DNA from: Escherichia coli
GTDB lineage: Bacteria > Pseudomonadota > Gammaproteobacteria > Enterobacterales > Enterobacteriaceae
Length of the DNA: 64,000 nucleotides
NCBI RefSeq assembly: GCF_041886205.1
Contig: NZ_CP169029.1
Strand: one strand, 5' to 3'
A program made the position numbers and the translations under genes. Within the stretch, counting starts at the first letter, position 1; every line of letters starts with the position of its first letter. Of the stretch, positions 13,921 through 33,804 are shown in pieces. The notes beneath the pieces were generated by a model. The model had not been told where the DNA came from and ran no database searches. It saw nothing but the letters and a program-made list of their open reading frames with translations.

Positions 13921-13928
13921 AATAAAAC

Positions 13929-13970: not shown

Positions 13971-13976
13971 TTCAAT

Positions 13977-14001
13977 CTGGGTGACGTAATGGGTGACGTA
14001 A
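13977..14001 (+). repeat. Tandem GGGTGACGTAA motifs at the tRNA-proximal island end; possible integrase arm-type or AlpA binding sites
   Basis: tgggtgacgtaatgggtgacgtaa; the same motif recurs at 33759-33804 next to the integrase start. Confidence 0.45.
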
Positions 14002-14036
14002 CTCAACTATAGGTGCCGTAGTCAGGGAGATTTAGC

Positions 14037-14831
14037 ATGAGCTTTAAGGATAAAGTTGAAGAGAAAAAAATGCGCCGTATGGCCCGTCCCCCTGAGTTAA
14101 CGGTAAAGGACTGGATTAGCCTTTATGATCTTCTTCGTTCAGCCAAAGCTCAAGACTCAGAAGCCATGTACGAAGACTTCGCCTCTGTGCTGTTAACTAC
14201 CCTGTCGGTTGAGCATCATCCGGAACTATACCGCCTGGACGGAAACAAACTAAACGCTGTTGCCGATGACCATTTTGCCTGGGACCTACTATCCGCCCCA
14301 ATGAAAGGGAAAATGTCCCCTGAAGAATTGGCGAAGCGCCCGAAGACCCTTTCCCAACTTCTTTGTATCTACGATGAAGATATCAGTAACGACGAGTCAC
14401 TTCGTACACATGGCTTCTTGCGTGACGCTATTGCCCCTATCCTCGATTTCGAGCTTCTGGATAGCATCGAAGATGAGCCTGACTACAAAGAAAAATATTT
14501 CGAGTTGCTAGCAGCGCAAAAGCACTCGACTCCCCCGCCACTAAGAGGGGAAAGTTATGCTATCAAACGAGAAGAGTTGCTGATCACAGCCCTTGCGGTT
14601 ATCTCTCAAAATCAAAGAGACGCTAATAAAAAGGTCGTCCCAACAGTTACTGAACTTCTGAATCAGATAGAAAAACATGCCTCTGCGTTCTGGCCTCACA
14701 GTAAACAACTTCCGATGTCTCGTGAGAATGCTTCTAAAGAGCTAGGCTTCGCCTTACATCTTTTAGAACAACCAAATCAGAATATTGAATTTCTTCGGGA
14801 AGCCAAAAAAGCAAAAAGAAAAAGTGCATAA
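14037..14831 (+). CDS. Hypothetical protein (264 aa), island-encoded
   Basis: Clean ORF with acidic helical composition and a lysine-rich C-terminus; no motif recognised. Confidence 0.5.
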   Translation: MSFKDKVEEKKMRRMARPPELTVKDWISLYDLLRSAKAQDSEAMYEDFASVLLTTLSVEHHPELYRLDGNKLNAVADDHFAWDLLSAPMKGKMSPEELAKRPKTLSQLLCIYDEDISNDESLRTHGFLRDAIAPILDFELLDSIEDEPDYKEKYFELLAAQKHSTPPPLRGESYAIKREELLITALAVISQNQRDANKKVVPTVTELLNQIEKHASAFWPHSKQLPMSRENASKELGFALHLLEQPNQNIEFLREAKKAKRKSA

Positions 14832-14963
14832 AAAGAAATAGTTACAAAAGGTACCCAGTAATCTTCAGGAAGGTACACGAGAAATATACCGTTCAGTTTG
14901 ATTAACTCCGTTCAGTTTCAGCTTTCACCACCAGGAGTTATTCAATTGAAAAATAAACCAACC

Positions 14964-15167
14964 ATGTCTGATAAGGTTGTCGCCCTTCATCAGCCCCAAC
15001 GTCTGATTCGCATTGATACAATGCTTCAGCTCCTCGATTGCAGTCGCACCACCCTCTACCGCTGGGTTAAAGCTGGCATTTTCCCACAGCCGATAATGCA
15101 TGAGGGCCGAACCGTAGGATGGCCAGCCAATACGTATCAATGCTGGCTTGAGCAAAATAACAAGTAA
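14964..15167 (+). CDS. AlpA-family phage transcriptional regulator (Prophage CP4-57 regulatory protein-like HTH)
   Basis: LIRIDTMLQLLDCSRTTLYRWVKAGIFPQPI matches the AlpA/MerR-like HTH pattern; start trimmed from ORF 14898 to MSDKVVAL. Confidence 0.65.
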   Translation: MSDKVVALHQPQRLIRIDTMLQLLDCSRTTLYRWVKAGIFPQPIMHEGRTVGWPANTYQCWLEQNNK

Positions 15168-15272
15168 TTCTGTTTGTTAAAGGGCTGAAATATTCAGCCC
15201 TTTCTTCATCTGACAATGAAACAAACTGGAACAAAAACGATTATTTTCACCTATTCTGCGACATGCTAAAAC

Positions 15273-16589
15273 ATGAGTAACTCTCTGATTAATCAAGTAA
15301 CAAAGCCCTCACCTGGTCAGGAACTCACCTCGGTATTTAATACTATTACGCCCGATAAGCCTGGCAACCTTGTTGAATATCAGCCAAAGGGAACGTTTGT
15401 TTTCAAAGAAGTGATGTGGTCTGTGCTGCCAGAGAAACGCAACCAGGACACGAAGATCATGAAAAGAATCTTCGGGGCAGTTGACAAGGTATCAGCGATG
15501 TCTCGCTTTCTTGCGGTCAGATATGATTTTCGGCTCCCGACCTACAGTGCGGATAATCGCATAATGGATGATTTCCATAATTTACTTTTCCGCCAGTTAA
15601 GTAAGAACTACCCAAAATCGTTTATCAGCTATCTTTGGGTAAGAGAGCAGGGCTCAGGGGAAGCACAGCATTATCACTATTTGTTGATGCTGGATGGCAA
15701 CTATATCCGTTATCCAAATAAGCTGAATACGATTGTCCGACATTGCTGGGAACAGGTTGCTGGTGGTTCGGTATGGTTCCCGGAAAACGGTTATTACTTT
15801 GTGAGCGAAAATGATCTCAAGACCTATACCGAATTGATGCTGAGAGTTAGCTATCTGGGTAAGCGCCGTACTAAAGAGTCAATTGATAAAGGTATCAAAC
15901 TTTTTGGCTCAGGCATGCGCAAACCGAAACCTGTCGCGCCTTCACGCCAAAAGTCTGCAATAACACCCTGCAAGCCAATCAACCAAAAAGCGGAGACGAA
16001 AACCAACGATCAGGATATGACGTTGAAATCCACCTACTCAGGAATGTTGGACAAATATTTTCTGGGCAAAGCCCGATTACCCGCCGTTCTGCGTAAACGT
16101 TCATCCTATGAACTTTATGACGAAAATAAATGGTGGTGTAATTCACCACGTTGGTCCGGCCATCGTCATAACTACGTGTTAGAGGCTCTGATTACTGGGA
16201 TCAGCCTTTCTGATTACGCACGCAAGTACAAGTTGAATCCAGTACGGGTATATGCAAACTGTCGCCGTGTTGGGGGGCAAAGCCTTAAAATTATTCACTG
16301 GGCATGGCATCGCTATTGCTTCCAGAAAAGCAAATCCACACAGGATGACTACATTAACAATCACCGGCTGAATCATAAAACAGCTAAAAAGCAGTTACGG
16401 CGTAAACCAATGAGCTCTCACTGGAGCCAGCACTTTGATCGATATTATCAAAAGTACTGGCCGAAAGGCTGGACTGTGGCCGACTACTGCCGTGAACACA
16501 ATCTGGTCGCCAGCACTGCCAGACGTTATATAGTCGATTTTCCATTTATAGGCCTGATAGACCCGTTCTTGTTGAAACCATGGTTATAG
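15273..16589 (+). CDS. YfjJ/YagK-family protein (inovirus Gp2-like), probable HUH-type replication initiator
   Basis: 438-aa ORF with HUH-like motif QHYHYLLML; AlpA-adjacent position as in CP4-57 yfjJ. Confidence 0.5.
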   Translation: MSNSLINQVTKPSPGQELTSVFNTITPDKPGNLVEYQPKGTFVFKEVMWSVLPEKRNQDTKIMKRIFGAVDKVSAMSRFLAVRYDFRLPTYSADNRIMDDFHNLLFRQLSKNYPKSFISYLWVREQGSGEAQHYHYLLMLDGNYIRYPNKLNTIVRHCWEQVAGGSVWFPENGYYFVSENDLKTYTELMLRVSYLGKRRTKESIDKGIKLFGSGMRKPKPVAPSRQKSAITPCKPINQKAETKTNDQDMTLKSTYSGMLDKYFLGKARLPAVLRKRSSYELYDENKWWCNSPRWSGHRHNYVLEALITGISLSDYARKYKLNPVRVYANCRRVGGQSLKIIHWAWHRYCFQKSKSTQDDYINNHRLNHKTAKKQLRRKPMSSHWSQHFDRYYQKYWPKGWTVADYCREHNLVASTARRYIVDFPFIGLIDPFLLKPWL

Positions 16590-17176
16590 AGATGAAAACA
16601 CCATAACAGTGTCACCTGGTATACTTACTGAGCGCGGCGTAACTTAAATATAAACACTTAGCCGCCATCAGTAAGCAGAGCCTTATCAACACTACCAGGG
16701 AATTATTGTGCAGCATGATAGCTGAGGTACCTCTCAATTCTTGACGGACATTAACGCACAGACAACGCTGATTACCTCCTGTAAGCCAATTTATATCTGC
16801 TTGCTGCCACATATCCGCTGGGACTAATCCCCTTTAAACACCTTTTACTTCAAAAAAATGTTTTCCTTCTGATTTATCCCATACGCGAAATAATGAAGAT
16901 TTTATTTTAATTACTAATACTTTCAATGAGATAAGATGCATACATTCTTACACTCATATGATCACTTTTATTTTTCTTTTAATATCAACACGTTATGAAT
17001 TGATCAGCACAAAAGTCACTGCAGGGGGTTAGCTGATTGAACGTTTCAGTTCGTTTCTAATGGCCACATATAGATTCACATCAAGAACTAGTGATCACTG
17101 TAGGGTAACGGTATGCCCAGATCAGCCTGCAGGGTATTCGCTGCGGATGACATGAAAAACAAAGACAGGGGATTGC

Positions 17177-17824
17177 TTACGGGTCAACAAACACACTGAT
17201 GGGGAGGTTAAACCGGCGCGCAAGTGCTCGCTTGTGATCCAGTGTTAATGTGCAATCCCCTTTCAGGATGCGACTCACCAGAGATTTATTACCAATCTCT
17301 TCTTCAAAATCGCTCTGAGTCAGTTTGTGCTGATCCATCAGTACGCGCAGTAAGGCAACACCCGTTGGGACCGCTGCAATACGGCTATTAAATTCAGCAA
17401 ACTCCGGCGCTTCATCTTCATACTGACCGATTTTCGCAACCAGAATATCCACCAGCGGATGGTCCGGCTCGTGTTCAATCAGATACTCGACCAGAGCCAG
17501 TGCATCTTCACTGTGGAAGCGTACGACTGATGTATAGGTAACATTTTGTTCAGTAATATATTTCATGGCTGCCAGTAAGTAGGAAGCTTTGAAAGTCACG
17601 TCCTGATAGTCCTTAGCTAACAAACTCCCATTCTCTTCAAACCGTTCAACAAATGCTGCAACTTCTTTTGGATCGATACGGCTGGTTTTATCTTTTCCGT
17701 TTCGAACAAACAGCTTTTGTTCTTCAGTATATAGCGTAAAAGGTACCTTCCTTGCCCCAGTAGACAGTTCAACTGGTTGGGAAAAAGACTCCAACATTAA
17801 ATGATAGAAATCTTTATAAGTCAT
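17177..17824 (-). CDS. Protein with C-terminal XRE-type helix-turn-helix and uncharacterised N-terminal domain
   Basis: C-terminal LTQSDFEEEIGNKSLVSRILKGDCTLTLDHKRALARRFNLPISVF resembles HigA/XRE HTH; immediately downstream of the McrC-like gene. Confidence 0.55.
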   Translation of the reverse strand: MTYKDFYHLMLESFSQPVELSTGARKVPFTLYTEEQKLFVRNGKDKTSRIDPKEVAAFVERFEENGSLLAKDYQDVTFKASYLLAAMKYITEQNVTYTSVVRFHSEDALALVEYLIEHEPDHPLVDILVAKIGQYEDEAPEFAEFNSRIAAVPTGVALLRVLMDQHKLTQSDFEEEIGNKSLVSRILKGDCTLTLDHKRALARRFNLPISVFVDP

Positions 17825-17913
17825 GATTACTACTCCCTCATCATTTTAGCACTCAAGAAAATACATGATGTGGTTGATTATCCGGTTGATAATTATGAAT
17901 CGTCATCGTCTCA

Positions 17914-19215
17914 TTACGGGGAAAACAGGGGGAAGGACGATTGCCACTCACCTTCCACTAATGCCCCTGATTCAAGCTCGAAGGGCACACACCAGAGCGA
18001 TAAATGTTTATCAAAATGGAACACTGGCAACGGAGTATCAAAAAACTGATGACGTGGATATATCAGCATCATATTCCCCTTCCCTTGCAGATATTTTTGC
18101 CCATAAGCGAACATCTGATACAGATCAGCCTGGTTAATTTCATACTTTCTCAGGCTGTTATCAGCTCGGCTGTCTAACAGCTTCCATTTGGCATCCAGTA
18201 CCATTACCTGCTCACCTGTGATGAGAAAGTCAGGTTTAAGCATGAACCATTGTTGAGGAGCCCTTTCGCCAGCAGGTACATGATCTAACAAATAATGACG
18301 TTTTGCCTGCTCAATAAGCTGATAATCCCTCAGCAAAGATAAAGCCAAACTGCGCCCCACCCAGCATTCATATAATTTTTCCATCGGGAACAACAGCGAG
18401 ATCCCCTGATGCAACCCATGCTGAAAATCTGGATTCAGTTTTTCCAGAATAAGTTGGCACCATGGCTTGATGGCACGATAAGCATAGAGATATTTACCGT
18501 TGCTCCATTGCGCCAGAGGCTGCGTTGTACTGCCACAAATTGGCTCTATACCGTCCAGTTGGTGGCTCAACGTGTTCGCCTGTCGCCAGCTCTGCCCCTC
18601 TTTGGTCATTTTAAGCACCCAATTCAGGGCCGTACGTAACAGACGGTTTTCAACTCGCTGAGGTGAAAACTCCGCATAACGCACATGAAAGCGAGCATCT
18701 CTACCAGGAGGCTGTCTCATTTGTGCCGTGATGTTCAACTGACCACGGATAAAAGCGCTGTGCTCATCCTCAACAAGGTGGTAGTCGAACCGCAACCCTT
18801 TGTGTACCAGTTCGGTAAGATGCCGCAAGAACTCGCTGAAAATCCACTCATGCATCGGCTGGTTGCTCCGCTGCAATGCAGCCTGATTAACTTCTCGGGG
18901 TGTAATCCCCAATGAAGCGCTGAGCATTCGACGTAAAAGCTGACGCAGGGGGATTATCTCAGTTGGCGCTTCAAATGTGGTTTTGGGCAGAATTTCAATT
19001 GACTCGCCATTCGGGGATTGTAGATAACCGACATAGCTTCCCAAACGCAAAAACCGCTTCCCTTCTCGGCTGAGAATTTGAGAGGTACCACTCCACTTTT
19101 GTTGCAATTGCTCAAGCCAGGAAAAGGTTGCCTCAGAGACAATTCCCAAATCCATACTGGCTGTTTGAGAACTATCACAAGTCAGCAGAGCATATTCCCG
19201 GACCTGGATCATCAT
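17914..19215 (-). CDS. McrC-like PD-(D/E)xK nuclease subunit
   Basis: 433 aa; C-terminal PDF...VLDAKWK catalytic-type motif; start overlaps the stop of the upstream McrB-like gene. Confidence 0.7.
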   Translation of the reverse strand: MMIQVREYALLTCDSSQTASMDLGIVSEATFSWLEQLQQKWSGTSQILSREGKRFLRLGSYVGYLQSPNGESIEILPKTTFEAPTEIIPLRQLLRRMLSASLGITPREVNQAALQRSNQPMHEWIFSEFLRHLTELVHKGLRFDYHLVEDEHSAFIRGQLNITAQMRQPPGRDARFHVRYAEFSPQRVENRLLRTALNWVLKMTKEGQSWRQANTLSHQLDGIEPICGSTTQPLAQWSNGKYLYAYRAIKPWCQLILEKLNPDFQHGLHQGISLLFPMEKLYECWVGRSLALSLLRDYQLIEQAKRHYLLDHVPAGERAPQQWFMLKPDFLITGEQVMVLDAKWKLLDSRADNSLRKYEINQADLYQMFAYGQKYLQGKGNMMLIYPRHQFFDTPLPVFHFDKHLSLWCVPFELESGALVEGEWQSSFPLFSP

Positions 19216-21194
19216 GTGACAATACCCTGATAAGCTTCTACCGACGCGAAAGCACGTTCATTGATGCGAAAACGCCTGTCAGACAAGCTATCCGCAATAT
19301 CTTTCGGGAATAGTTCAGAGAATGACGGTAATTGTGCTGACTGTTGCAACAGGATAAAACGGTTTTCTTTCGCTTTTACCGAATCATTAAGCACCCAACC
19401 AATGCGCTCATAATCATCAAAGAAATACTCTCTCAGTAATGGAATGATTTTGTTCTGGAAGATGCTGGCCAGACAGGCTTCGCGGTCGGCATTATTTTCT
19501 AATTTTTTTAGTGGCATAAAGTAAGCATGGCCAATCATATGTTCACTATCCAGCAGCGCTTCGATCCGCTGATTAATACGCGTTAACAACGTTTCGACAT
19601 CAACACCGAACGCAGTGACCCCAGCTAACAGCTCCGGTCGTGCGGGCATTTCGGTAAAGCTAAAGCGTCGTCTTAGCGCCAAGTCCATTTGGATGAGTGA
19701 TTTATCCGCAGTATTCATCGTCCCAATGACATAAACATTTTGCGGTACTGAGAATGCTTGCTTTGAATAAGGGAGCATCAGCGACCGCTCATCATCGGCC
19801 CCTTGACGTTTGTCCGGCTCAAGAAGAGTAATAAGCTCACCAAAGATACGTGCTATATTACCGCGGTTGATTTCATCTATTATCAGTACATGTGGTAGAT
19901 CCTGACTATCGGCATTCTCAACAGGAGCCAGCAACTGAGTTAATTTTTCACGATCAATCGTCGTATCCTGCAACTCATATAGGGTCATCTGAGATAGTGA
20001 CTTGATGAAAATTTGCTCTTTAGGAAGGCTTGGGGTGTATGTTCTTAACCATTTAACTGAACGCATTTGATGGTAATACTCACGTTCATCATTGGGTAAA
20101 TAACTATACTCACCTGTAATCTCAGCTATTGCACGGAACTTATGATTTCCATCAGAGACGACGACTAAATCGCCATTCTTAATAATATTTTTAAAGGTAT
20201 TCACGGCAACAGCCATATAATTACTGGTGCCTTCCAATGACTGTTTTTCTGATGCAATCCGAGCTTTGACTGACTCATAGGTAGAGCAGTTACTAAAATC
20301 GATATCTTCTCCCCAACCTAGCAGGACATAATTGTTTGCCAGGCAGTCCTCATACACATCCTCTTCTCCGCCCATGGTATTACCCAGAGACATCTTCCAG
20401 ATCCGCCGACCTTTGAGTGAGATAGATTGTGTTGCACTCCCCTGAACTTTAACCCTGGCATTCAGGCACAGCTGTTTAAAAATACCATCCACAACTTCGT
20501 AGCGAAGCGCGCCCGATTTTTCATCAGTAGTTGCGCGAATCCCTTCGATAAAATCTTCATAGGAGAAGCTCTGATGGAAGGTGGTAAACATAATGCGCTG
20601 CTTTTCTACCAACGCCTTATAGCGTTCATTTACCAACTCCCGTAAGTCATTGCCATGATGTTCGAGCGTAGCCTGTTGGTACCACGTATTATCGGCAATT
20701 TTGACCGCCATTTCGGTGGTACTGTAGGTTTTACCCGTGCCGGGTGGTCCAAAGAGAATTTGGTTTAAGGGATACATTAACGATTGTTCCTTATTTTCGT
20801 TGTCTCTTTTTAGTCTGGGTTGGGTAGTTATAGATGGTTTACCACCCAGCAAAGCCACCAGCGTCTGCAACGCTTCAACGGATTCAACATCAGCCGCGAA
20901 ACCATATTGGGATGTACCGTTATCTTTCGGATAACGGCGGTAGCTGGTGCTTTTTACTTTTTCCCAAAGGCAGTGGATACCCGAAATGCGATCAATTTCC
21001 GCTTTTACGGCAAGGGTTTCAGGTGCAAGAACCAATGGACTCTTTTTAACCACGCCGTCCCGGCTGCGTTTGACATACAGATACTTTCCATTCCCGAGCG
21101 CATGTTCGGATGCATAGCTTGGCTCGAATTTTCCCGCCTCAAGCCGGTAACCCAATTCATTCAACGCCTGGTATATCTCGAAAGAATTCAGCAT
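19212..21194 (-). CDS. McrB-like AAA+ GTPase subunit with an unusually long insertion inside the AAA+ module
   Basis: Walker A ILFGPPGTGKTY, McrB-signature LIIDEINRGN and RRRF; about 285 aa between Walker A and Walker B; AAGGAG RBS before the ATG. Confidence 0.75.
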   Translation of the reverse strand: MLNSFEIYQALNELGYRLEAGKFEPSYASEHALGNGKYLYVKRSRDGVVKKSPLVLAPETLAVKAEIDRISGIHCLWEKVKSTSYRRYPKDNGTSQYGFAADVESVEALQTLVALLGGKPSITTQPRLKRDNENKEQSLMYPLNQILFGPPGTGKTYSTTEMAVKIADNTWYQQATLEHHGNDLRELVNERYKALVEKQRIMFTTFHQSFSYEDFIEGIRATTDEKSGALRYEVVDGIFKQLCLNARVKVQGSATQSISLKGRRIWKMSLGNTMGGEEDVYEDCLANNYVLLGWGEDIDFSNCSTYESVKARIASEKQSLEGTSNYMAVAVNTFKNIIKNGDLVVVSDGNHKFRAIAEITGEYSYLPNDEREYYHQMRSVKWLRTYTPSLPKEQIFIKSLSQMTLYELQDTTIDREKLTQLLAPVENADSQDLPHVLIIDEINRGNIARIFGELITLLEPDKRQGADDERSLMLPYSKQAFSVPQNVYVIGTMNTADKSLIQMDLALRRRFSFTEMPARPELLAGVTAFGVDVETLLTRINQRIEALLDSEHMIGHAYFMPLKKLENNADREACLASIFQNKIIPLLREYFFDDYERIGWVLNDSVKAKENRFILLQQSAQLPSFSELFPKDIADSLSDRRFRINERAFASVEAYQGIVT

Positions 21195-21223
21195 TTCCTA
21201 CACCACTCCTTGATGAAAAAGCG

Positions 21224-24200
21224 TTAAGCCCCTTTCAACATATCAAACACCACGCGGGCAAAGCCCTTCGCCAGTTCAGGATTAGAGAGGTATTGCACCA
21301 TCATCTCCTGCTGGGCGTCGTTGCTGTCCATCACGGCATCATCAATGGCTTTCGGGAAATCGCCCAGCATCGCCTGCTCACGCGTATTGTTCGCAATCTG
21401 GGTCATCACCGCCTGGTTTTCTGACAGCTTGTCGCGCACCGCGAAGGCATAATTGATCATGTCTTTATCGGTCAGATTATCGGTGACGAACAGCTCGTTC
21501 AGGCGCGCCAGGATATTCGACAGAAACTCTTCTTTCTTGTCTTTCGGCTTCGCCGTACCGACATCATTCCCCGGTGTGATTTTGTATTCTGCCGCATCTT
21601 CCTGCAGCTTCAGATGCTGTTCGTGGAGTTTCGACAGGCGATAATGGCTCATCTCCACGTTGCTTAAATCAATCTCATCTTCTTCGATACGCTGTTCATG
21701 CAGTAACGGGCGCAGGTGGCGGGCAAATAGGCTCAGTTTTTCCAGGTTCTTGTCGTCGTAATCGACGATTTGCGACATAAACTCGTAAAAGCGGACAAAG
21801 CTGCCGAGGTCTTTCTTGAAGATATCCAGCTTACTTTTTTCTTTCTCGCACTCTTTGAAGCTGTTTTCCGCATTGGTGATCAGCACAACATCGCCGGTCT
21901 TCTTAGTACGTTCGAAGATCGCTTTGGCCTTTACATACTCGTCAATCGCCGAGGTGTAACGCTGTTTCCAGCGCTGCACCGCTGGTTTGCAGATATTACT
22001 AATGGCCGCGTTGGATTTGTTTTTGCTGAAGAACGCTTCGCAGAACTGCTCCACTTCGTTCCACAGGAAAATACCGCTGGTACGCAGCTTTTCAAAGAGC
22101 TCAAAGACCTGTTGCGGGTCGCTGACATCCGTCAGTTCTGCTGTCTGGTAGTACGGCTGGAAAGCCCCCAAAATCTCGTCGGGCTCGTTGTAGAAATCGA
22201 GCACAAAGGTGCCTGACTGCGCCTTCCCCGGATAGGTACGGTTCAGGCGTGACAGCGTCTGTACACACTCCACGCCGCCAAGCTTTTTATCCACATACAT
22301 GGCACACAGCTTGGGTTGGTCAAAACCGGTCTGGAATTTGTTGGCCACCAGCATCACCTGGTAGTCGTCGGTATCAAACGCTTTGCGCATATCCCGGCCT
22401 TTCAGGCCTGGGTTCATATTGATTTCGGTGAACTTCTGGTTAAGCAATGCAAGGCTATTGTGGTCATCTTCATGGAACTCAACTTCACCGGAGAACGCCA
22501 CCATTGCGCTGATCTTGTCGTATTTTTGCTCGGCGATGTATTTATCGAATGCCAGCTTATAGCGCACCGCTGCTTTACGCGAACTGGTCACCACCATCGC
22601 TTTCGCCTGACCAGCCAGTAAGTGCATCACATGCTTGCGGAAGTGCTCAACAATCACCTTCACTTTCTGCGACACGTTATGATCGTGCAGCGATACCCAC
22701 TGGTTGAGTTTGATCTTGGCTTTCTTGCTGTCTACTTCCCGGTCAGGATCGTCCAGCTTTTGCAGCAGCTTGTACGCCACCTTGTAGTTGGTGTAGTTCT
22801 TCAGCACATCAAGTATGAAGCCTTCTTCGATGGCCTGACGCATTGAGTAAACGTGAAACGCTTCCGGTTTGTTCGTTTTCGACGCCGGTTCCTGCGGATT
22901 AGGACGACGGCCAAACAGCTCCAGCGTTTTGGCTTTCGGCGTGGCGGTAAAGGCGTAATAGTTGAGATTGTTGCTGCCTTTACGTGCGGCGACGGTGGCA
23001 TCCAGAATATCTTCTGAAGACATCTCCACATCGTCATCCGCTTCTTCGGTCATAAGCACTTCTTTCAGCTGACGCGCCGTAGAACCACTCTGCGAGGAGT
23101 GCGCTTCATCGGCAATCACCGCGTATTTGCGCTGCTTGAGGCTGACGCTGTTTTCAATCGCCTTCAGGACAAACGGGAACGTCTGGATAGTGACGATAAT
23201 GATCGGCTGCGAGTTTTCCAGCGCGCTGGCCAGCTTCTCCGATTTAGAACCGTCGCCTTCTTTGTTATTGATCCGCCCGACCACGCCATCCTGATGCTCA
23301 AACTGATAGATGGTGTCCTGCAGCTGATCGTCAAGCACGGTGCGGTCCGTCACCACAATCACCGAATGGAACTGCTTCTCGCCATTTTCATCATACAGGC
23401 GGGAAAGCTGATGGGCCGTCCAGGCGATAGAGTTAGATTTGCCCGACCCGGCACTGTGCTGAATCAGGTATTTATTGCCGGTGCCTTCCACTGTGGCGGC
23501 GGTGATCAGTTTATTCACCACATCCCACTGGTGATAGCGTGGGAAAATCAGGCTCTCACTTTTGTACTTCAGGCCAATGGCATCTTCTTTTTCTACGATT
23601 TGCAGATGCACGAAGCTCGCGAGAATTTTCAGCAGATTGTCCGGCAGTAGCACCTCATTCCACAGGTAGCTGGTGGCGTAGTCGTTGGCATCTTCCGGGA
23701 TATCGTTCCCCGCACCGCCGTCATGGGTGCCTTTGTTAAACGGCAGGAAGAAGGTTTTATCGCCCTCGAGTTTGGTCGCCATAAACACTTCGTACTGGCT
23801 GACGGCAAAGTGCACCAGCGCGCCGCGTTTAAAGGTCAGCAGCGGCTCGGGTTTATTAGTGCCTGGGTCCTTTGGCAAACGCGTTTTCTTATATTGCGTA
23901 ATGGCGTTTTGCACCGTCTGCTTAAATTCAGACTTCAGTTCCAGGGTCGCTATCGGCAGGCCATTAACGAACAATACCAGGTCGATACGCCATTTCTTCG
24001 CTTTTATACCGGTATCTTCAAATGCGGCGTTCGATGCATGCGGGCTGTAAACCAGCTCCGGCACGATGCGGCAGATATTCTGTTTATAACGAGCCAGTGT
24101 TTCCGGATTGAGGTTATGTTCCGGCTTAAACTGGCACAGAGAAAAACGCGCGTTATGGCTTTTGATACCATGTCGCAGCACGCCTAAAGTGCCATAGGTG

Positions 24201-25791: not shown

Positions 25792-28175
25792 CAGGAATGT
25801 ACCTCCCGCAGCAGCTTCATAATCTCGGTACTGACTGCATCCAGATCGGCATCAATCTCTTCCAGTGGGCGCGGCGGCTGATAGACGTAGAAATGGCGGT
25901 TAAACGGAATCTCATAACCGACAATTCCCACCTCACCATCTTTCGCATCACGCTTATCGGCGTTGATCCACGCATCATTTACATGCGGCAGCACTTCTGC
26001 TTTGAAGTAGTTTTCGATCAGGTCGCTGGTCGACATTGCCGGGTTCAGCGGCACGTTTTCGTTATCGCGCAGCTCGCCGTCCTGTTCGAACTCAACAACC
26101 TTGCCTTTGTACTCAAACGCACCGTACAGCGGCTGAGCGGCTTCTTTCAGCACCTTCTTCACCACCGGCTCGGCATCCGGGTTTTTCGTGGTAATGGCAT
26201 CGATAAACTGCTTGTTCTCTTTCGCATCCAGCTTCACGCCAGCCGTTTTGATGGCCCCTTTCAGGGTCAGTTGGAACTGATTGAAGTCATTGCTCACCCG
26301 CGTTTTGCCACCCGCCTGCGCACCCAATACCACCTGAATCTGCTGTGCTTTTTCCATGAACTCGCGCTGTGCCAGCCACAATTTGCTGTCGAGCAGGTCT
26401 TTAATCTGCTTCTCTTTCAGCTCTGCAAATTCGGCTTTGATGATGGCGCGCGCTTCGGCTTCCAGTTCGGAGAAATCACCATAGCTGTCCTCCCTCCACT
26501 GGGATGCGAACTCTTCATACAGGCGTTCCATTGGCGCGTTAAACGGCTTCGGCGCAAAGCGCAGAGTCGCAATCGCTTCATCAGTCACCTGTGCAGATAA
26601 CCGCAGCGGGCGCTCAATGGTCAGGCGGCGATAGCCAAAGTCGGTGCTGTTAAAGATTTTGCTGGCGAAGGTTTTCGGAGCTTCGGTTTTGGCCATGGCA
26701 GGCTGACGGCCACGGTTGGATTTTTGCTCGGCGGCTTTTTCCAGACCCAGTTCTTCCAGGGCTGTGACATCCACCACCTGAAAATCACCGAAGGTCTGCG
26801 TGATCAGTTTGATATCGTCTTCGCCCATCAGGTTGCGCTTGGAACCCAGCGATTTACGCATTTTGCCGCACAGGTTAGTGCCATCAATCAGCTGTACTTT
26901 TCCTTTACGCTCAGGCGCTTTCTTGTTGGAGAGGATCCAGACGTAGGTGGCAATACCGGTGTTGTAGAACATATCTGTTGGCAGCGCGACGATGCCTTCC
27001 AGCAAATCGGCTTCCAGAATGTAGCGACGGATTTCGCTCTCACCGCTGCCCGCACCACCAGTAAACAGTGGAGAGCCGTTAAGGATAATCCCGATACGTC
27101 CGCCGTTGCTCACGGTGCCATCCACATTGTGGTTGTCGCGCATTTTGCTGATCAGGTGCATCAGGAACAGCAGCGAGCCGTCGGAAACACGCGGCAGGCC
27201 CGGGCCAAAGCGACCGTTAAAGCCCTTTTGCGTATGTTCGTCGTTAATCTCGCCCTCAATCTTCTTCCAGTCCACGCCAAACGGTGGGTTAGACAGCATG
27301 TAGTCGAATTGATCCAGCGGTAACTGGTCGTTAGAGAGGGTGTTACCCAGCTTAATGCGGCTGACGTCCTGACCTTTGATCAGCATGTCGGCTTTACAGA
27401 TAGCGTAGGATTCCGGATTCAGCTCCTGACCAAAAGCGCGCATCACCGCGTTAGGGTTCAGCTCGTGCACATATTCCATGCCCGAAGAGAGGAAACCACC
27501 CGTCCCGGCCGTCGGGTCATAAATGGTGCGGATGATACCAGGCTGCGTCAGGGCTTCATCATCTTCCATAAACACCAGTGAAGTGGTCAGACGCACGATA
27601 TCGCGTGGGGTGAAGTGCTCACCGGCGGTCTCGTTAGATCTTTCCGCGAAACGACGGATAAGTTCTTCAAACACCAGGCCCATCTCATAGTTGGAAATCG
27701 CTTTCGGGCTGAGATCGGTGGTGGCGAATTTCTTCACTACTTTGAACAGCAAGTTGGCGTCTTCCAGCAGGCCGACGAACTCACTGAATTTAAAATGCTC
27801 GAAGATTTCACGCGCATCGGGCGAGAACGACTGGACGTAATTCTCCAGGTTGGCTTTGATGTCGTTCTGCCCCATCTTGCCAAGATCCATCTTCGAGGTG
27901 TTGAAGAAGGAAAGCTCGCTGGCGCGCAGCAGAAACTTCTCTTTGGCATCTTCCGGCAGCGTGCTGGTTTTTAATTCATCATATTTCGCCACCACCGCAT
28001 CTTTGGTCTCCGCCAACACACACTCAAGACGGCGCAGCAGCGTAAAGGGCAGGATCACGCGCCCGTACTGAGACTGTTTGAAATCACCGCGCAGTAGATC
28101 GGCCACCGACCATATAAACGCAGCCGTTTGAGAAAAGTTAGTGTTAGTCATAAGCGACACCCAAAAAAATGGCAT
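25791..28175 (-). CDS. hsdM: Type I restriction-modification methyltransferase subunit (HsdM), long form; alternative start at 28151
   Basis: N-terminal HsdM_N-like region ([37 protein letters not shown]), NPPF catalytic motif, about 250-aa C-terminal extension. Confidence 0.82.
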
Positions 28176-28358
28176 AAAAAAGTGGCAAGATTATACCCCA
28201 TCAGGCATAAGATGCTTTGACTTATAACGCATCAGTTTGAAACACAATGGTGATGGGGGTCACAGGGGCTGACATGTACTTTTAAGATTAAAAAGCATTA
28301 ACATCTACTTTTGAAGAAAACAGAAAAAAACAATCACAAACCTTTAAAAACAAAAACT

Positions 28359-31300
28359 ATGCCAATTATTAATAAAAAGTATCAAGAGCTTCAGTTAACA
28401 GATGAGTACATTACCGATCCACTGCTCATGGCCCTAGCCTGGAAGAAAAGCCATCACTACATACGTACCACAAATTGGTATGCTGACAACTTTGAACTAG
28501 ACCTGTCGGCTTTGGACCTAATGCAGCACTGTAAAGATTGGGTCAAGAGAATGCAGGACAAAAAAGAATTTAAATTTTCAGAGCTACAACTTGTTCCTGT
28601 ACCAAAAGCCTGTAAATGGGAGTTTAAGACTGTCGAAAATAAGGTTCTATGGCAACCTTGTGATGAAAAAGAACTTACCCTACGCCCCCTTGCCCATATA
28701 CCCATAGCTGAACAAACCATCATGACATTAGTCATGATGTGCCTAGCCAATACAATAGAAACCAAGCAAGGAAACCCAGACACCAGCTATGACATCGTCC
28801 ACCAGAAAGGTATCGTCAATTACGGAAATAGACTTTATTGTCAGTATATTGACGATAAAGCAGAGCACAGCTTCGGTGCAACAGTGACATATAGTAAATA
28901 CTTCACTGATTATCGGAAATTTTTAAATAGGCCTTATCATTTTGCGTCAAAAGCGCAAGGTGAAATTTCGCCGGACGAAGCCGTTTACATCATAGAACTA
29001 GATCTTGCGAAGTTTTTCGATTTAGTAAACAGGAAGACTCTAATTCAAAAGATAAAAAACCATATCAGTGAGTCAATAAACAATAAAGAAAACCCACTCG
29101 CCAATCATTTATTTAAATGTTTTGCAAACTGGGACTGGACTGCATCTAGCATAAAAAATTATGACATATGCAAGTCAGACGAAGTAACAGAAATACCAAA
29201 AGGCATCCCTCAAGGATTGGTTGCAGCAGGGTTTCTATCAAATATTTACTTACTTGAATTAGATCAATTCTTGCATAATAAAATTAACACAGACATAACT
29301 GATGACATTAAATTTGTTGATTACTGTCGATATGTCGATGACATGCGATTTGTGGTTAAGGTTAAAAAATCAAAAAATAATAATACCGCATTCATAAATG
29401 ATGTAATAACCAATCTTCTTAAAAATGAGATAGATAATCTTGGACTGATAATTAATCCTAAAAAAACAAAAGTAGAAATTTTTAGAGGCAAATCCGCAGG
29501 CATCTCGCGTAGCTTGGAAAACATCCAGACCAGATTAAGCGGCCCAATATCAATGGATAGCGCCAACGAACAACTTGGGCATCTTGAGTCATTATTAAGT
29601 CTGACAAAAACCGATTTTGAACCACCGAAAAATGGTAAATCAAATAGATTAGCTGAGATTGAAAAAGACCGTTTCGATGTCAGGGAGGACACTCTTAAGC
29701 GCTTTTCTGCCAATAAAATCAGTAAGATACTAAAAGAGTTAAGACATTTCATCTCGCAGGATATAGATACTGATGGGGAGGTTATTGCCGGGGAATGGGA
29801 TTATCTGCAAGAACGTTTGGCACGGCGTTTTATTGTCTGTTGGAGCCATGACCCGTCACTGGCACTGCTACTCAAGAAAGGGCTGGAACTTTTCCCTGAT
29901 CCTAAGCTATTAGACCCTATACTTGAACAGCTTTGCTCACTCATTGAAAGCGATAATGAAAAACAAAGTGCAGTAGCTACTTATTGCCTTGCTGAAATAT
30001 TTCGACATTCAGCAATGACTATTCATAAAAAAGACACCTATGCATTCCCTGCACAAGCCAATGTGGATGGGTACTTTGAAAAAATACAACATTGCGCCGC
30101 GACATTCATTAATAAGCGCAGCGCCTCTGACAACGAAACTTGGAACCTGTTAATTAATCAGGCTAGTTTTCTGTTGCTTGTGCGTTTAGATAATACATTA
30201 GAAAAAAATGGCACTGATGCCAGGCATGATCTTATCTTAAAACTGGCATCAGGCTTTAGAACAATTACACTTCCCACTAAAATGGATAGCAAGACTATAG
30301 CCTCATGTATTTTGTTGGCTAGTCAATTAGTTAAAGATAACAAACCATTTATTCGCTCCTGCGCTTCTTTGTGCGAAAGAATTTATGACAAAGAACACGT
30401 CATAAAATTGAAGAAAATAGTTAGCATAATATCACATCAAAACTTATCATTGTTTAAATCCTTAGTTTATCATTCACGACCTTTACAACAGAAGTGGCTA
30501 AACTCAGACTCCGTGAAAATAATAATTAATGAATGCCATATAGATATACAACCTTTGGCGACTTCTTTAGGCATGATAAAAAGTAGTCACTCATTACTTA
30601 GAATCATATCAAGACCTGATAACCCATTTGCCAATGAGATAATGGCATTAAAACTGATGCAAGCCCTTTTATTGGACAGGATTGTTTGCCTGGATAATAA
30701 AAAAGATTATCAAATAAGTGTAGCAAACACCAAAGTGACGTTTCATAACTACTCCAACCCTCCAACATCGAATGTCTTCGATGCAGGAATGGATATGGAT
30801 GCAAAATTATTCAAATCATCGGGATGGGTCGATTCTATTTTCACGGATGATGCAGACACTCAAATATTGTATAGAGTTGCCATGTGCATCCGTTCAGTAC
30901 TACTCGGCAAACAAGACTGGACAGATTTTGGTCAAGCAATTTCCCCCAAACAGGGTTATCGGGGTATTAAAACTAGTAGAGACAAACGTCAATTGGGGAT
31001 GATGACAACACCTGAGTCCATTGCCGGTGAGAACTCTCAGGTTTCTGGTTGGCTTACCACACTCTTATCCAAGTTGCTTGCCTGGCCGGGAATTTCAGTG
31101 GGTGATAATGGATATCAATGGCCAGCAATTTTTACAGTAGATGCTGTCAGAAAACTAGTTGATGCTCGGCTGAGTAAACTTAAGCAGGATTACTGCAAAC
31201 TATCAGGAACTCCGGGACTTACAGAAAAAATACAGTTCAACTGGTCTGACTCGAAAAAAGCCCTAACAGTTGCTATGGTCCAGTCAAAACTGCCTGCAAC

Positions 31301-32135
31301 GAAAGATTTTGTCAGCCATGGACTTCTTTTAAACTCCGCAAAGTATAGAGTGATTCATCGCAGACATGTTGCTGAAGTGGCTGATTTAGTTGTAAAACAC
31401 ACGCTTGCACAAAAAACAACTCAACGAACTCATGGTGAAAAAATAGAGAACATTGATTTAATAGTATGGCCTGAGCTCGCTGTACATAGTGACGATTTGG
31501 ATGTACTCATCGCCTTATCTAGAAAAACGAATGCAATCATATACTCGGGCCTGACATTTATTGAGCAACCTGGAATCAAAGGACCAAATAATTGTGCCGT
31601 TTGGATTGTCCCACCTAAAAGCAATAGCAGCCAGAAAGAAATGATAAGACTTCAAGGCAAGCATAATATGATGGAAGATGAGAAAGGCCGGGTTGAACCC
31701 TGGAGACCATACCAATTGATGCTTGAACTTGTTCACCCCCAATTTACTGATAAAAAAGGATTTGTTCTCACAGGCTCCATTTGTTATGACGCAACCGACA
31801 TCGCGCTAAGTGCAGATCTCAGGGATAAATCAAATGCTTATCTTGTAGCAGCATTAAACAGGGATGTTAATACATTCGATTCCATGGTTGAAGCACTGCA
31901 TTATCATATGTACCAGCATGTTGTGCTCGTTAACTCAGGGGAATTCGGAGGATCTTACGCTAAAGCACCTTACAAGGAGCCGTTTAATCGTTTGATTGCT
32001 CATGTTCATGGCAATGATCAGGTAGCTATAAGTACGTTTGAAATGAACATGTTTGATTTCCGTCGTGATAATATAGGAAAAAGTATGCAATCCGGGTTAG
32101 ATAAAAAAACTGCTCCTGCAGGAATCATAATGTAA
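28359..32135 (+). CDS. Reverse transcriptase-nitrilase fusion, defence-associated RT type 1 (UG1)-like
   Basis: RT motifs GIPQGLVAAGFLSNIYLLELD and YCRYVDDMRFVV (YVDD); C-terminal carbon-nitrogen hydrolase motifs IVWPELAV and LTGSICYDATD; start trimmed from the TTG-initiated ORF 28311 to ATG at 28359. Confidence 0.75.
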   Translation: MPIINKKYQELQLTDEYITDPLLMALAWKKSHHYIRTTNWYADNFELDLSALDLMQHCKDWVKRMQDKKEFKFSELQLVPVPKACKWEFKTVENKVLWQPCDEKELTLRPLAHIPIAEQTIMTLVMMCLANTIETKQGNPDTSYDIVHQKGIVNYGNRLYCQYIDDKAEHSFGATVTYSKYFTDYRKFLNRPYHFASKAQGEISPDEAVYIIELDLAKFFDLVNRKTLIQKIKNHISESINNKENPLANHLFKCFANWDWTASSIKNYDICKSDEVTEIPKGIPQGLVAAGFLSNIYLLELDQFLHNKINTDITDDIKFVDYCRYVDDMRFVVKVKKSKNNNTAFINDVITNLLKNEIDNLGLIINPKKTKVEIFRGKSAGISRSLENIQTRLSGPISMDSANEQLGHLESLLSLTKTDFEPPKNGKSNRLAEIEKDRFDVREDTLKRFSANKISKILKELRHFISQDIDTDGEVIAGEWDYLQERLARRFIVCWSHDPSLALLLKKGLELFPDPKLLDPILEQLCSLIESDNEKQSAVATYCLAEIFRHSAMTIHKKDTYAFPAQANVDGYFEKIQHCAATFINKRSASDNETWNLLINQASFLLLVRLDNTLEKNGTDARHDLILKLASGFRTITLPTKMDSKTIASCILLASQLVKDNKPFIRSCASLCERIYDKEHVIKLKKIVSIISHQNLSLFKSLVYHSRPLQQKWLNSDSVKIIINECHIDIQPLATSLGMIKSSHSLLRIISRPDNPFANEIMALKLMQALLLDRIVCLDNKKDYQISVANTKVTFHNYSNPPTSNVFDAGMDMDAKLFKSSGWVDSIFTDDADTQILYRVAMCIRSVLLGKQDWTDFGQAISPKQGYRGIKTSRDKRQLGMMTTPESIAGENSQVSGWLTTLLSKLLAWPGISVGDNGYQWPAIFTVDAVRKLVDARLSKLKQDYCKLSGTPGLTEKIQFNWSDSKKALTVAMVQSKLPATKDFVSHGLLLNSAKYRVIHRRHVAEVADLVVKHTLAQKTTQRTHGEKIENIDLIVWPELAVHSDDLDVLIALSRKTNAIIYSGLTFIEQPGIKGPNNCAVWIVPPKSNSSQKEMIRLQGKHNMMEDEKGRVEPWRPYQLMLELVHPQFTDKKGFVLTGSICYDATDIALSADLRDKSNAYLVAALNRDVNTFDSMVEALHYHMYQHVVLVNSGEFGGSYAKAPYKEPFNRLIAHVHGNDQVAISTFEMNMFDFRRDNIGKSMQSGLDKKTAPAGIIM

Positions 32136-32155
32136 TAAATATTAGATATTTTTAT

Positions 32156-32194
32156 ATTAGAGGTGAGGAGATGGCGTCACCTCTAATATTTTCG
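32156..32194 (+). terminator. Intrinsic terminator after the RT-nitrilase gene
   Basis: Perfect 10-bp inverted repeat ttagaggtga/tcacctctaa followed by tatttt. Confidence 0.6.
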
Positions 32195-32428
32195 CTGATT
32201 GTATTTAGCATCAAATAATAAAGGTACAATTAATTTAAGTGACTATCATGAAAAAATTAGTTCCGCCATATCAAGTAACCCCGGCACAAATCTATCGTTC
32301 CGTTGCCAGTTCTACAGCCATTGAAACCGGAAAACCCGTGCAAGAAATTGAGCGACAGCTCAAACGTAACCGAACGCTGGCGAAGAACGTCGGCCTCGCC
32401 AGCAAATCCAGAGATCCGATTTAAGCCT

Positions 32429-33736
32429 CTATCTCTGCCCAAACAGGTTAACGACATTGTTTTCCTGCTGTTGCTGGTGGTTATTCACCCGAGACTCCCA
32501 GATCTCGAGAGCCTTACGCTTTTCAACCAGGTAATCGTAACGATCGTAGTGTTTAGAACTCACATCCTGTAGAGCATGGTTCTGAATGCGGTCACGCAGG
32601 TCTTTAGCAATACCCGCTTCGCCCATCAGGGTCTTACAGGTACGACGAATATCACGCGCAATAAAAGATGGGCTCAACGCAAAGTGTTGCCGGTAATAAA
32701 TGATGGCTTGTGCAAAGCTGTCTGTGCGTAGATGCTGTTCCGGTTTAATACGCTGCGGGAAGATGTAAGGACTCTGACTATGATTCTCAGCTTTCAACTT
32801 TTCGAGTATCTCAATGGCTGACTCAGTCAAAGGCACCAGATGATCCCTTTTATTTTTCGACACATCCGCCACTATCAATAACGTTTTTTCTTCCCAGTTA
32901 ACGGCATCCCAACGGCTGGAAACCAGTTCATGAGGCCGCTGGCCACCCGTATAGACACACAAGTTAAGCAATTGGCTGATTAACGGGCCGACCTTTGGTG
33001 CTTTAGGGAAATCCCCCATCAGTTGCTGCAACTCATCCAGCTTCAGCCAGTTTGTCCCTGCCTTCTCCGCTGCAGATTGTTTGGGTATGACACTCACTGG
33101 GTTCATTTGAAGCCCAAACATCACGTTCTGCTGGTGGTTTGCCGGATCGTTGTCAGCCTTCAACCCATAATTGAATGCTGCCATCAGATAAGAGCGAACA
33201 CGATTTGCTTCAACTGATGCGCCACGTTTAATAATGGTGGCCAGAATTTGTTTGATATGAGCGGGGATAACGTCACGCGCTTTCGTCGCTTTAGGTATAA
33301 ATGGATAGGTTTCTTTTTCCAGCCGGTACAAAACCTGTTGCCAGGTGCGTTTACCGTCTTCACGCATTTTGGTGGTGTAACCCAAAATGAGTTGCTCAAT
33401 GCTGCCTTTGAGCTGGTCTTCACGTTGTTGTTGTTCGGCAGAGAAAAGCTGCTCTGCGATTTCAGCTTTGGGGTCTTTCCCTTCTTTAAGAAGACCCGCA
33501 TGTTCTTTACATTGCTGTCTTGCCTGCGCGAGTGACAACTCTGGGAAACGGCCAAGCAGAATGAATTGCCGTTTTCCTTGCCAAAAATAACGATAGTAAA
33601 ATACTCGCTGACCCGATGGCTCAACTTTCACCCCTAATCGCCCTGCCCCACGCTCACCACTTTTATCCCATTCATAATAAGCAGTAGTCTTCGGCTTCAA
33701 GCCACTAATCATTGAGACAGTTAAATTATCAGCCAT
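32429..33736 (-). CDS. P4-type tyrosine integrase of the ileY island
   Basis: N-terminal arm-binding-like domain (MADNLTVSMISGLKPKTTAYYEWDKSG...RVFYYRYFWQGKRQ); start trimmed from ORF 33838 to ATG at 33736; adjacent to attR. Confidence 0.82.
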   Translation of the reverse strand: MADNLTVSMISGLKPKTTAYYEWDKSGERGAGRLGVKVEPSGQRVFYYRYFWQGKRQFILLGRFPELSLAQARQQCKEHAGLLKEGKDPKAEIAEQLFSAEQQQREDQLKGSIEQLILGYTTKMREDGKRTWQQVLYRLEKETYPFIPKATKARDVIPAHIKQILATIIKRGASVEANRVRSYLMAAFNYGLKADNDPANHQQNVMFGLQMNPVSVIPKQSAAEKAGTNWLKLDELQQLMGDFPKAPKVGPLISQLLNLCVYTGGQRPHELVSSRWDAVNWEEKTLLIVADVSKNKRDHLVPLTESAIEILEKLKAENHSQSPYIFPQRIKPEQHLRTDSFAQAIIYYRQHFALSPSFIARDIRRTCKTLMGEAGIAKDLRDRIQNHALQDVSSKHYDRYDYLVEKRKALEIWESRVNNHQQQQENNVVNLFGQR

Positions 33737-33758
33737 AGTATTTTTCAGTCCTTTGTTC

Positions 33759-33804
33759 GTTACGTCACCCAGTCTGATTCTGGGTGACGTAGTGGGTGAC
33801 GTAA
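33759..33804. repeat. Three GGGTGACGTA motifs (one inverted, two direct) upstream of the island integrase
   Basis: gttacgtcaccc ... tgggtgacgtagtgggtgacgtaa; same motif as 13977-14001. Confidence 0.45.

Follow-up and report, generated by a model that had tools for sequence, protein, structure and literature searches.

The window, a 64,000-nt stretch of the Escherichia coli contig NZ_CP169029.1 (assembly GCF_041886205.1), carries a 20.1-kb genomic island at ileY, the gene for tRNA-Ile2 (Table 1). The island is bounded by a perfect 50-bp direct repeat that corresponds to the 3' part of ileY, and in most E. coli genomes the site is empty, with the intact tRNA joining the window's right flank directly; the ileY island is thus a real insertion. 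Its cargo, consisting of DRT1, a type I restriction-modification system and an McrBC-like system, marks it as a defence island, apparently intact and probably mobile. Insertion has replaced the 3' part of ileY with an island-supplied copy and displaced the original one to the far end. The 50-bp core segment runs from the tRNA anticodon loop to 3 nt beyond the tRNA end, and the crossover site lies somewhere inside it. Directly downstream of the tRNA stands an island-borne hairpin, missed by the terminator scan and seen only by folding, which is predicted to give ileY a new terminator and to space the core from the repeats described below; equivalent hairpins are present in related islands.

Table 1. 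Attachment-site features and associated genes of the ileY island, in window coordinates.
Feature	Position	Strand	Basis or remark
tRNA-Ile2 gene ileY (integration target)	13845..13920	+	ARAGORN, anticodon CAT/CAU; RefSeq tRNA-Ile in L001, L002
core identity segment (50 bp), attL copy	13874..13923	+	perfect direct repeat D1
island-borne hairpin, then U-tract	13921..13968	+	inverted repeat I6; folding energy -23.8 kcal/mol, z = -5.4
tRNA-side arm: TGGGTGACGTAA twice, as tandem 12-bp units	13978-13989 and 13990-14001	+	exact search; proposed integrase arm-type sites
AlpA-like small HTH protein, presumed recombination directionality factor	14946..15167	+	Pfam Phage_AlpA, E = 1.8e-7; 73-aa HTH regulator in L001 annotation
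YagK/YfjJ-domain protein	15273-16589		weak REP_ORF2-G2P match
P4-type tyrosine integrase (Int), 435 aa, with N-terminal arm-binding domain	32429..33736	-	Pfam PF13356, PF22022, PF00589
inverted arm-type copy, TTACGTCACCCA on the + strand	33760-33771	-	exact search; 24 bp upstream of int ATG
int-side arm: tandem 12-bp units TGGGTGACGTAG (33781-33792) and TGGGTGACGTAA (33793-33804)	33781..33804	+	proposed integrase arm-type sites
conserved -10-like hexamer (int strand: TATCAT)	33807..33812	-	read from sequence; 2 bp upstream of tandem pair
candidate -35, TTGTTC	33830-33835	-	17-bp spacer to -10-like hexamer; 3/6 match
pair of 14-nt direct repeats 73 bp apart, AACAACATGAAACA and AAAATCATGAAACA	33831..33917	+	int-side arm, between tandem pair and core
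core identity segment (50 bp), attR copy: original 3' part of ileY, now displaced	33930..33979	+	perfect direct repeat

An initial annotation of the window had pointed to clusters of a short motif at both island ends, two tandem copies on the tRNA-proximal side and three, one of them inverted, near the integrase start, and an exact search bears this out. The 10-mer GGGTGACGTA occurs five times (13979-13988, 13991-14000, 33782-33791 and 33794-33803 on the plus strand; 33761-33770 on the minus strand), all just inside the two ends. Shuffled sequence yields a mean of 0.04 copies and reached five in 0 of 100 shuffles, which excludes chance; allowing one mismatch adds seven further sites, scattered without clustering. 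The placement is not symmetric, as had been supposed, since the gap to the core repeat is 55 bp on the attL side (two copies) and 126 bp on the attR side, where the three copies lie at 126-168 bp. The repeats are unrelated in sequence to the core. Within 1.67 Mb of compared sequence the exact 10-mer occurs 14 times against 3.2 expected, and 12 of these 14 occurrences are arm positions within the clade of the window's integrase, so that the motif is not dispersed.

These positions delimit the functional attachment site to an attL arm at 13874-14001 and an attR arm at 33760-33979. Excision would join the island ends into an attP of about 300 bp, reading in order the int start, the inverted site, 11 bp, a tandem pair, 126 bp, the 50-bp core, 55 bp with the terminator hairpin, and the second tandem pair. 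The IHF consensus WATCAANNNNTTR has no match inside either arm; the 14-nt repeats AACAACATGAAACA and AAAATCATGAAACA are a candidate accessory-factor site.

We consider the five copies of GGGTGACGTA to be arm-type sites of the island's own integrase, at a probability of roughly 0.85. The N-terminus of this protein carries an Arm-DNA-bind_3 domain (PF13356, DUF4102; Pfam E = 2.9e-16) and matches the PDB entries 3JU0 and 3JTZ by sequence (E = 3e-6). Its AF2 model (pLDDT 78.5) has an N-terminal four-stranded beta-sheet plus helix as in 3JTZ, 3JU0 and 3RMP, with target-normalised TM scores of 0.76-0.88 at 31-34% identity, and the title of 3RMP reads 'recognition of attP substrates by P4-like integrases'. 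The integrase would thus be heterobivalent: its catalytic and core-binding domains would act on the tRNA core, while the N-terminal domain would dock on the 12-bp arm units, so that the arms would be linked to the core in an intasome with a geometry set by the conserved spacings. We infer from this arrangement that Int binds the units and needs them for recombination.

The initial annotation had proposed a motif search across related islands. Megablast found no E. coli complete genome with the window's integrase, and distant blastn of E. coli returned 0 matches with the int-side arm; relatives were therefore taken from other genera. The same search with the tRNA-side arm gave only 4 matches, because the arms diverge too fast for blastn. 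The 80 integrase relatives compared retain a common layout and spacing, but the 10-mer differs from clade to clade, and more than 10 different ones fill this layout. GGGTCAGGTA stands at all five positions in the ileY island of E. coli ES5, which encodes an Int of 58% identity, and 14 other islands with both ends to hand likewise carry the same clade-specific motif at both ends. In 13 small islands the tRNA-side pair agrees with the int-side pair over 23 nt apart from 0-3 mismatches; the distance from the tRNA end to the tRNA-side pair is 55-60 bp in 13 islands of different motif class, and that from the tRNA-fragment end to the start of the int-side pair is 171-176 bp in about 40 relatives (most loci). 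The repeats are thus element-specific and co-vary with the cognate integrase, both ends changing in concert. For the small Vibrio islands an identity as PICMI satellites was considered and rejected, because PICMI sit at fis and carry a primase. Two loci with truncated integrases (L031 and L068) were left out of the layout comparison, and six (L067 and L069-L073) had no clear 12-bp-period pair by the criteria applied. The inverted copy is present in most relatives and absent from the Pantoea/Erwinia clade, E. albertii and E. coli ETEC1717, indicating that its role is not universal.

Partial Mantel tests, which are confounded by shared ancestry and for AlpA rely on a short alignment, associated the motif with the Int N-terminus given the C-terminus (r = 0.56, p = 2e-4) or given AlpA (r = 0.59, p = 2e-4), as against r = -0.16 for the Int C-terminus and r = -0.06 (p = 0.67) for AlpA, each given the N-terminus. 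By these correlations, motif divergence appears to track the N-terminal domain of the integrase, and neither its catalytic part nor AlpA. Furthermore, in all 29 loci the base at motif position 10 goes with the amino acid at Int position 37, which lies in predicted strand beta2: loci with C have K or R there (A in L051 alone), and loci with T have Q, an association likewise confounded by shared ancestry. This residue is a candidate contact, and one beta-strand residue appears to set one base.

The initial annotation had named the integrase or a recombination directionality factor (RDF) as the reader of the repeats. The integrase is favoured, since motif distance follows its N-terminal domain and does not follow AlpA. 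That the AlpA-like RDF binds the repeats, bending the arms for excision and repressing int, strikes us as improbable, although the window encodes such a protein and its gene is also found in 48 of the compared sequences, most relatives included. RDFs such as TorI do bind repeated sites overlapping the int promoter (PMC2951348). The repeats of the ileY island, for their part, occupy both arms in the exact P4 arm-repeat layout. RDF sites are usually confined to a single arm, where they lie between core and arm-type sites; neither this one-arm placement nor co-variation with the RDF was found. Additionally, Aeromonas islands have the layout without a recognisable AlpA, including a 6-kb island in which AlpA and YagK/YfjJ are both without a Pfam match. 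Comparison of AlpA between the window and ES5 (27% identical) is uninformative.

Still less probable is a replication role, in which the repeats, united on circularisation, would serve the YagK/YfjJ (inovirus Gp2-like) replication protein as iterons or as an origin element. Such a protein is encoded in the island, and the minimal islands L032 and L040 have homologues. Against this, the copies number just 2 + 3, lie on either side of the core and are fixed in spacing relative to the tRNA; the layout is identical in P4, which has a different replication protein and separately annotated ori repeats; and loci L044 and L045 have the layout without a Pfam YagK/YfjJ match. Because most relatives encode AlpA and the YagK/YfjJ-like protein alongside the integrase, gene content taken by itself argues against neither, and the three minimal islands, with AlpA in 3/3 and the YagK/YfjJ-like protein in 2/3, do not discriminate on this ground.

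The CRE-like TGACGTA core noted in the initial annotation is present in the 10-mer but reads TCAGGTA, TCAAACA, TAGTCAAG, GTGTAGTT and others in relatives, with position, period and orientation kept; since it is not conserved, it is incidental. A host transcription-factor site (CRE/CRP-like) would have to keep its sequence constant; such a site, or a remnant of chance or duplication without a recombination role, is hardly credible given the copy number and confinement described above, and homologous loci share no constant palindromic TGACGTCA-like core of the CRE/bZIP or CRP type.

Under the arm-site interpretation, the repeats may also bear on integrase expression. TATCAT and TTGTTC together form a putative int promoter; a TAnnnT hexamer stands at the same position across clades and in P4, and no int-strand promoter came out of a strict sigma-70 scan. 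The int-side sites sit between the -10-like hexamer and the int ATG, so bound integrase should repress its own gene, an arrangement that suggests negative autoregulation of int. Autoregulation has been reported for P4 Int, there as Int/Vis autoregulation, and for IntS (PMC2951348) and for IntI of PAI I536 (PMC7286903).

Among known systems, phage P4 is the closest in organisation (X51522, 'attP arm sequence repeat'): its int side has an inverted copy and a tandem pair of 12-bp period, and a second pair follows beyond the core. In both elements the int-side pair lies about 110-125 bp from the core and has a TATCAT hexamer just upstream, while the second pair lies about 53-55 bp beyond the core. 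Both also use a tRNA 3' end as target and encode an integrase with a DUF4102-type arm-binding domain. The repeats themselves differ (ATGCCCCC in P4, GGGTGACGTA in the ileY island), the integrases are only 21% identical, and the inverted copy overlaps the int ATG in P4 whereas it lies 24 bp upstream in the ileY island. Cargo and target also differ, P4 being a satellite phage that uses leuX according to the literature, as opposed to a defence island at ileY.

Further likenesses link the ileY island to other integrase systems. HPI and HAI7 islands reportedly target asn tRNA genes. Their integrases have the same N-terminal domain as that of the ileY island, while their arm sequences differ; 3JTZ, 3JU0 and 3RMP are arm-type binding domains of the integrases from these HPI/HAI7 genomic islands (Szwagierczak et al. 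2009, cited in PMC8138268). In KplE1 at argW (IntS/TorI; PMC2951348) and in PAI I536 (IntI; PMC7286903), the int promoter lies within the attachment arm, overlapped by arm-type sites, with self-repression; in the ileY island, by comparison, autoregulation is only predicted. KplE1 also differs in the number and arrangement of its P' sites, and its TorI sites have been mapped. Lambda Int shares the heterobivalent principle, with five core-flanking arm sites (P1, P2, P'1-P'3) bound by the N-terminal domain, but its arm-binding domain is three-stranded, of another fold subgroup, and the arrangement and spacing of its sites are different. We found no description of ileY-island arm sites in the literature. 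The GGGTGACGTA repeats are almost certainly an ordinary, well-understood kind of feature, of which the ileY set is a further example that does not overturn current understanding.

The integrases of the ileY-island family all target one core, the 3' half of tRNA-Ile2, and do so with at least ten arm-site 'codes'. In an example of identities to the window's Int, N-terminal domains reach 27-51% as against 53-62% for catalytic parts, the N-terminal domain evolving faster. Lambda and HK022 integrases share arm sites and differ in core specificity; in the ileY family, conversely, it is the arm sites that diverge around a constant core. One tentative idea, which we hold to be possible but doubtful, is that the arm codes could form an orthogonality system in which islands that compete for a single attB or occupy it in tandem (in E. 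coli, ileX and ileY) are kept from excising, capturing or scrambling one another. Such a system would be the mirror image of lambda/HK022.

In summary, our analysis delimits the functional attachment site of the ileY island and offers a prediction of how its integrase gene is kept low. The conserved geometry also provides a rule for finding island ends together with their cognate integrases: one pair of 12-bp period is to be sought about 58 bp beyond the end of the tRNA, and another about 173 bp from the displaced tRNA fragment. Moreover, comparison across the family yields testable predictions of which residue goes with which base when DUF4102 domains recognise arm sites. If the orthogonality idea is true, the arm units would constitute a compact, re-programmable specificity module.

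The island at ileY is a 20.1-kb insert bounded by a perfect 50-bp direct repeat, which runs from the anticodon loop to 3 nt beyond the tRNA end. The tRNA (anticodon CAT) is annotated by RefSeq in the same context as tRNA-Ile, i.e. ileY, flanked upstream by glaH-lhgO-gabDTP and an alpha-amylase pseudogene, and downstream by ypjC-like DUF5507/5508. The site is empty in most of 5,426 complete E. coli genomes, where the tRNA is directly joined to the window's right flank; the window integrase is found in none of the 5,426, and the island's left part is common to only one complete E. coli genome. A hairpin with a U-tract (-23.8 kcal/mol, z = -5.4) separates the tRNA end from the left repeats and is an island-supplied replacement terminator for ileY; equivalent hairpins occupy the same place in relatives of unrelated sequence. 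The left part encodes, in order, a hypothetical protein, an AlpA-like HTH protein, a YagK/YfjJ-domain protein and an HTH protein, and the cargo at 17177-32135 is a defence island. About 19 kb to the right lies ssrA (tmRNA gene, tag ANDENYALAA), and blocks of low and high GC in between suggest further mobile DNA.

The initial annotation correctly described a motif repeated twice at the left end and three times at the right: five exact copies of GGGTGACGTA occur in the 64-kb window, against a mean of 0.04 in dinucleotide-preserving shuffles. Allowing one mismatch added only scattered singletons, and the motif is not dispersed, with 12 of 14 exact matches in the 1.67 Mb examined lying at arm positions. 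At the right end, 11 bp separates the 10-bp core of the inverted copy from that of the tandem pair. A possible degenerate third copy at the tRNA side (AGGTGCCGTA, two mismatches) lies 10 bp past the pair, and the hypothetical-alpA-yfjJ cluster begins with an ORF 17 bp downstream of it; relatives do not conserve this copy, which may be due to chance. Between the int-side pair and the core lies a 14-nt direct repeat, the first copy of which overlaps a candidate -35; it may be a site for a host factor or a recombination directionality factor (RDF).

Features of the window (NZ_CP169029.1), phage P4 and fetched loci of other genomes (handles L0xx); motif classes are in int orientation
Feature	Location	Strand	Sequence or detail
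tRNA	13845-13920
50-bp direct repeat	13874-13923; 33930-33979
Hairpin and U-tract	13921-13968
Motif copies 1, 2 (exact search)	13979, 13991	+	GGGTGACGTA
Motif copy 3 (exact search)	33761	-	GGGTGACGTA
Motif copies 4, 5 (exact search)	33782, 33794	+	GGGTGACGTA
Left-end pair of 12-bp units	13978-14001		TGGGTGACGTAA x2
Right-end inverted 12-bp unit	33760-33771		TTACGTCACCCA
Right-end pair of 12-bp units	33781-33804		TGGGTGACGTAG then TGGGTGACGTAA
Possible degenerate copy	14011-14020		AGGTGCCGTA
14-nt direct repeat	33831-33844; 33904-33917		AACAACATGAAACA; AAAATCATGAAACA
McrBC-like pair	17914-21194	-
Type I R-M HsdR/HsdS/HsdM	21224-28175	-
Drt1a reverse transcriptase-nitrilase	28311-32135	+	1274 aa; PADLOC E = 0
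Tyrosine integrase, right end	leftwards from 33736	-	435 aa; Arm-DNA-bind_3, Phage_int_M, Phage_integrase
Int residues 37; 28	33626; 33653
ssrA	53333-53695	-
P4 inverted arm repeat	X51522 3915-3926		overlaps int ATG
P4 int-side pair	3942-3953, 3954-3965
P4 core	4078-4097
P4 far pair	4151-4162, 4163-4174
ES5 tRNA-side end	L002 20246-20401		at ileY
ES5 int-side end, displaced tRNA 3' half	L003 35100-35366		adjoins nfeF
Minimal islands	L032 659-5224; L040 9974-14161; L044 9786-14143
No inverted copy	L006-L012, L016, L048, L085 (20170-20246)
Motif class	window, Buttiauxella, Silvania; Pantoea/Erwinia clade (pair only)		TACGTCACCC
Motif class	about 25 enterobacterial loci		TTACCTGACCC
Motif class	Salinivibrio, Grimontia, Enterovibrio		TGTTTGACTA
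Motif class	Colwellia, Motilimonas		TACTTGACTA
Motif class	L042		TTAGATCACCC
Motif class	L043		AACTAGACCC
Motif class	L044, L065, L038		AACTACACCC
Motif class	Aeromonas		AAGTACACTT
Motif class	L030, L041, L049, L063		ACTACAG-type
Motif class	L078		CTTACGGTGA
Motif class	Pseudomonas islands (tRNA-Gly in L080, L081)		AACTGTCACC

In layout, the window repeats the attP arm design of satellite phage P4, and its putative arm sites are of this well-known P4 type. The GenBank record of P4 (X51522) annotates each 'attP arm sequence repeat' as a 12-bp unit (core ATGCCCCC), and TATCAT stands directly upstream of its int-side pair in int orientation. The gap between int-side pair and core is 126 bp in the window and 112 bp in P4, and that between core and far pair 55 and 53 bp. 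The two integrases are only 21% identical. In the heterobivalent model, the integrase N-domain binds arm sites and the C-domain the core (PMC2951348, PMC8138268).

The same layout recurs among the 80 integrase relatives (34-95% identity) that we retrieved from 100,044 species genomes with a peptide-pattern scan. Most carry a pair with a 12-bp period upstream of int, and many an inverted copy 8-18 bp nearer the start codon; the 10-mer itself is clade-specific. The inverted copy is absent from the Pantoea/Erwinia clade, E. albertii and E. coli ETEC1717, where the tandem pair is intact. The motif search across related islands proposed by the initial annotation found the same clade-specific pair at both ends of 13 islands, those short enough for both ends to fall within the fetched locus, with 0-3 mismatches in 23 nt between ends (11 of the 13 measured). 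E. coli ES5 carries a different ileY island with the same anatomy and another motif: tRNA, hairpin and GGGTCAGGTAATGGGTCAGGTAA on one side, and TTACCTGACCC, 12 bp and GGGTCAGGTAATGGGTCAGGTAA upstream of an integrase 58% identical to that of the window, so that all five arm copies are altered in concert. The GGGTCAGGTA-class integrase occurs in about 449 of the 5,426 E. coli genomes, the window's class in none. The two ES5 island ends lie at ileY and beside nfeF, with another downstream terminator; we take the nfeF surroundings to be the ileX neighbourhood of the K-12 map, which implies a large ileX/ileY inversion, via the islands or the identical tRNA genes.

Minimal tRNA-Ile2 islands of 4-4.5 kb in Vibrio, Motilimonas and Psychromonas look like satellites. 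Their order is int, an abutting or overlapping hypothetical gene, alpA and one to three small genes, with a YagK/YfjJ (Gp2-like Rep) protein last in L032 and L040; L044 has no Pfam match to YagK/YfjJ. We rejected their assignment as PICMIs, which sit at fis and carry primase.

Spacing is rigid. The tRNA 3' end lies 55-60 bp from the tRNA-side pair in 13/13 measured cases (window, ES5 and 11 small islands), and the start of the int-side pair is 171-176 bp from the 3' end of the displaced tRNA fragment in most loci, with no conservation of the sequence between. This argues for a defined nucleoprotein architecture.

The initial annotation had proposed arm-type sites for the integrase or an RDF, and our comparisons point to the integrase as the protein that would read the motif. 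Its N-terminus matches the solved arm-type binding domains of two integrases, those of HAI7 and HPI, both in sequence (3JU0, 3JTZ) and in fold. The AF2 model (pLDDT 78.5) shows four strands plus a helix, and its three best matches in the PDB are 3JTZ, 3JU0 and 3RMP; the 3RMP entry bears the title 'Structural basis for the recognition of attP substrates by P4-like integrases'. Within the family, divergence is faster in the first 100 residues than in the remainder of the integrase. Two partial Mantel tests used representatives dereplicated at 90% integrase identity; like the residue-base and AlpA-less-island comparisons, they are correlative and share phylogenetic confounding. Motif distance followed N-terminal distance with the C-terminus controlled (r = 0.56, p = 2e-4) and not the converse (r = -0.16; 28 representatives). 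Across 29/29 loci, separate lineages included (alignment A2), residue 37, which falls in the predicted beta2 strand, is K/R where motif position 10 is C (exception, A in L051) and Q wherever it is T; residue 28 (E/Q versus S/T) tracks position 2. Both residues are candidates for the contacts that determine the specificity of the DUF4102 arm-binding domain.

Recognition by the RDF, presumably the AlpA-like protein, is disfavoured by the P4-type layout, which occupies both arms, and by the 20 representatives with an AlpA homologue, in which the motif follows the N-terminus when AlpA is controlled (r = 0.59, p = 2e-4) and shows no such link to AlpA when the N-terminus is controlled (r = -0.06, p = 0.67). 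The layout is also kept in Aeromonas 6-kb islands that have no Pfam-detectable AlpA or YagK/YfjJ protein. The missing YagK/YfjJ match there and in L044 also speaks against iterons for a YfjJ-like protein, as do copy number, spacing fixed to the tRNA and the P4 annotation. A host CRE/CRP-like site or chance is excluded, because relatives replace the TGACGTA core singled out initially while the layout persists, and by the shuffle counts.

Integrase binding may also bear on int expression. Across clades, the int-side pair is preceded at 1-3 bp by a TAnnnT hexamer (TATCAT, TACTAT or TACACT), with a weak TTGnnn element 17 bp further upstream, so the first part of the int transcript would be covered by the arm sites. 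Some integrases are known to repress their own gene by binding within a promoter embedded in att: this is documented for IntS, has been reported for P4 Int (both in PMC2951348) and has been shown for the P4-like IntI of PAI I536 (PMC7286903). Since a strict promoter scan called no int promoter, we only infer such autoregulation in the window. More broadly, the many arm codes of this family, all used on one shared attB, may plausibly serve as an orthogonality system that keeps competing islands apart.
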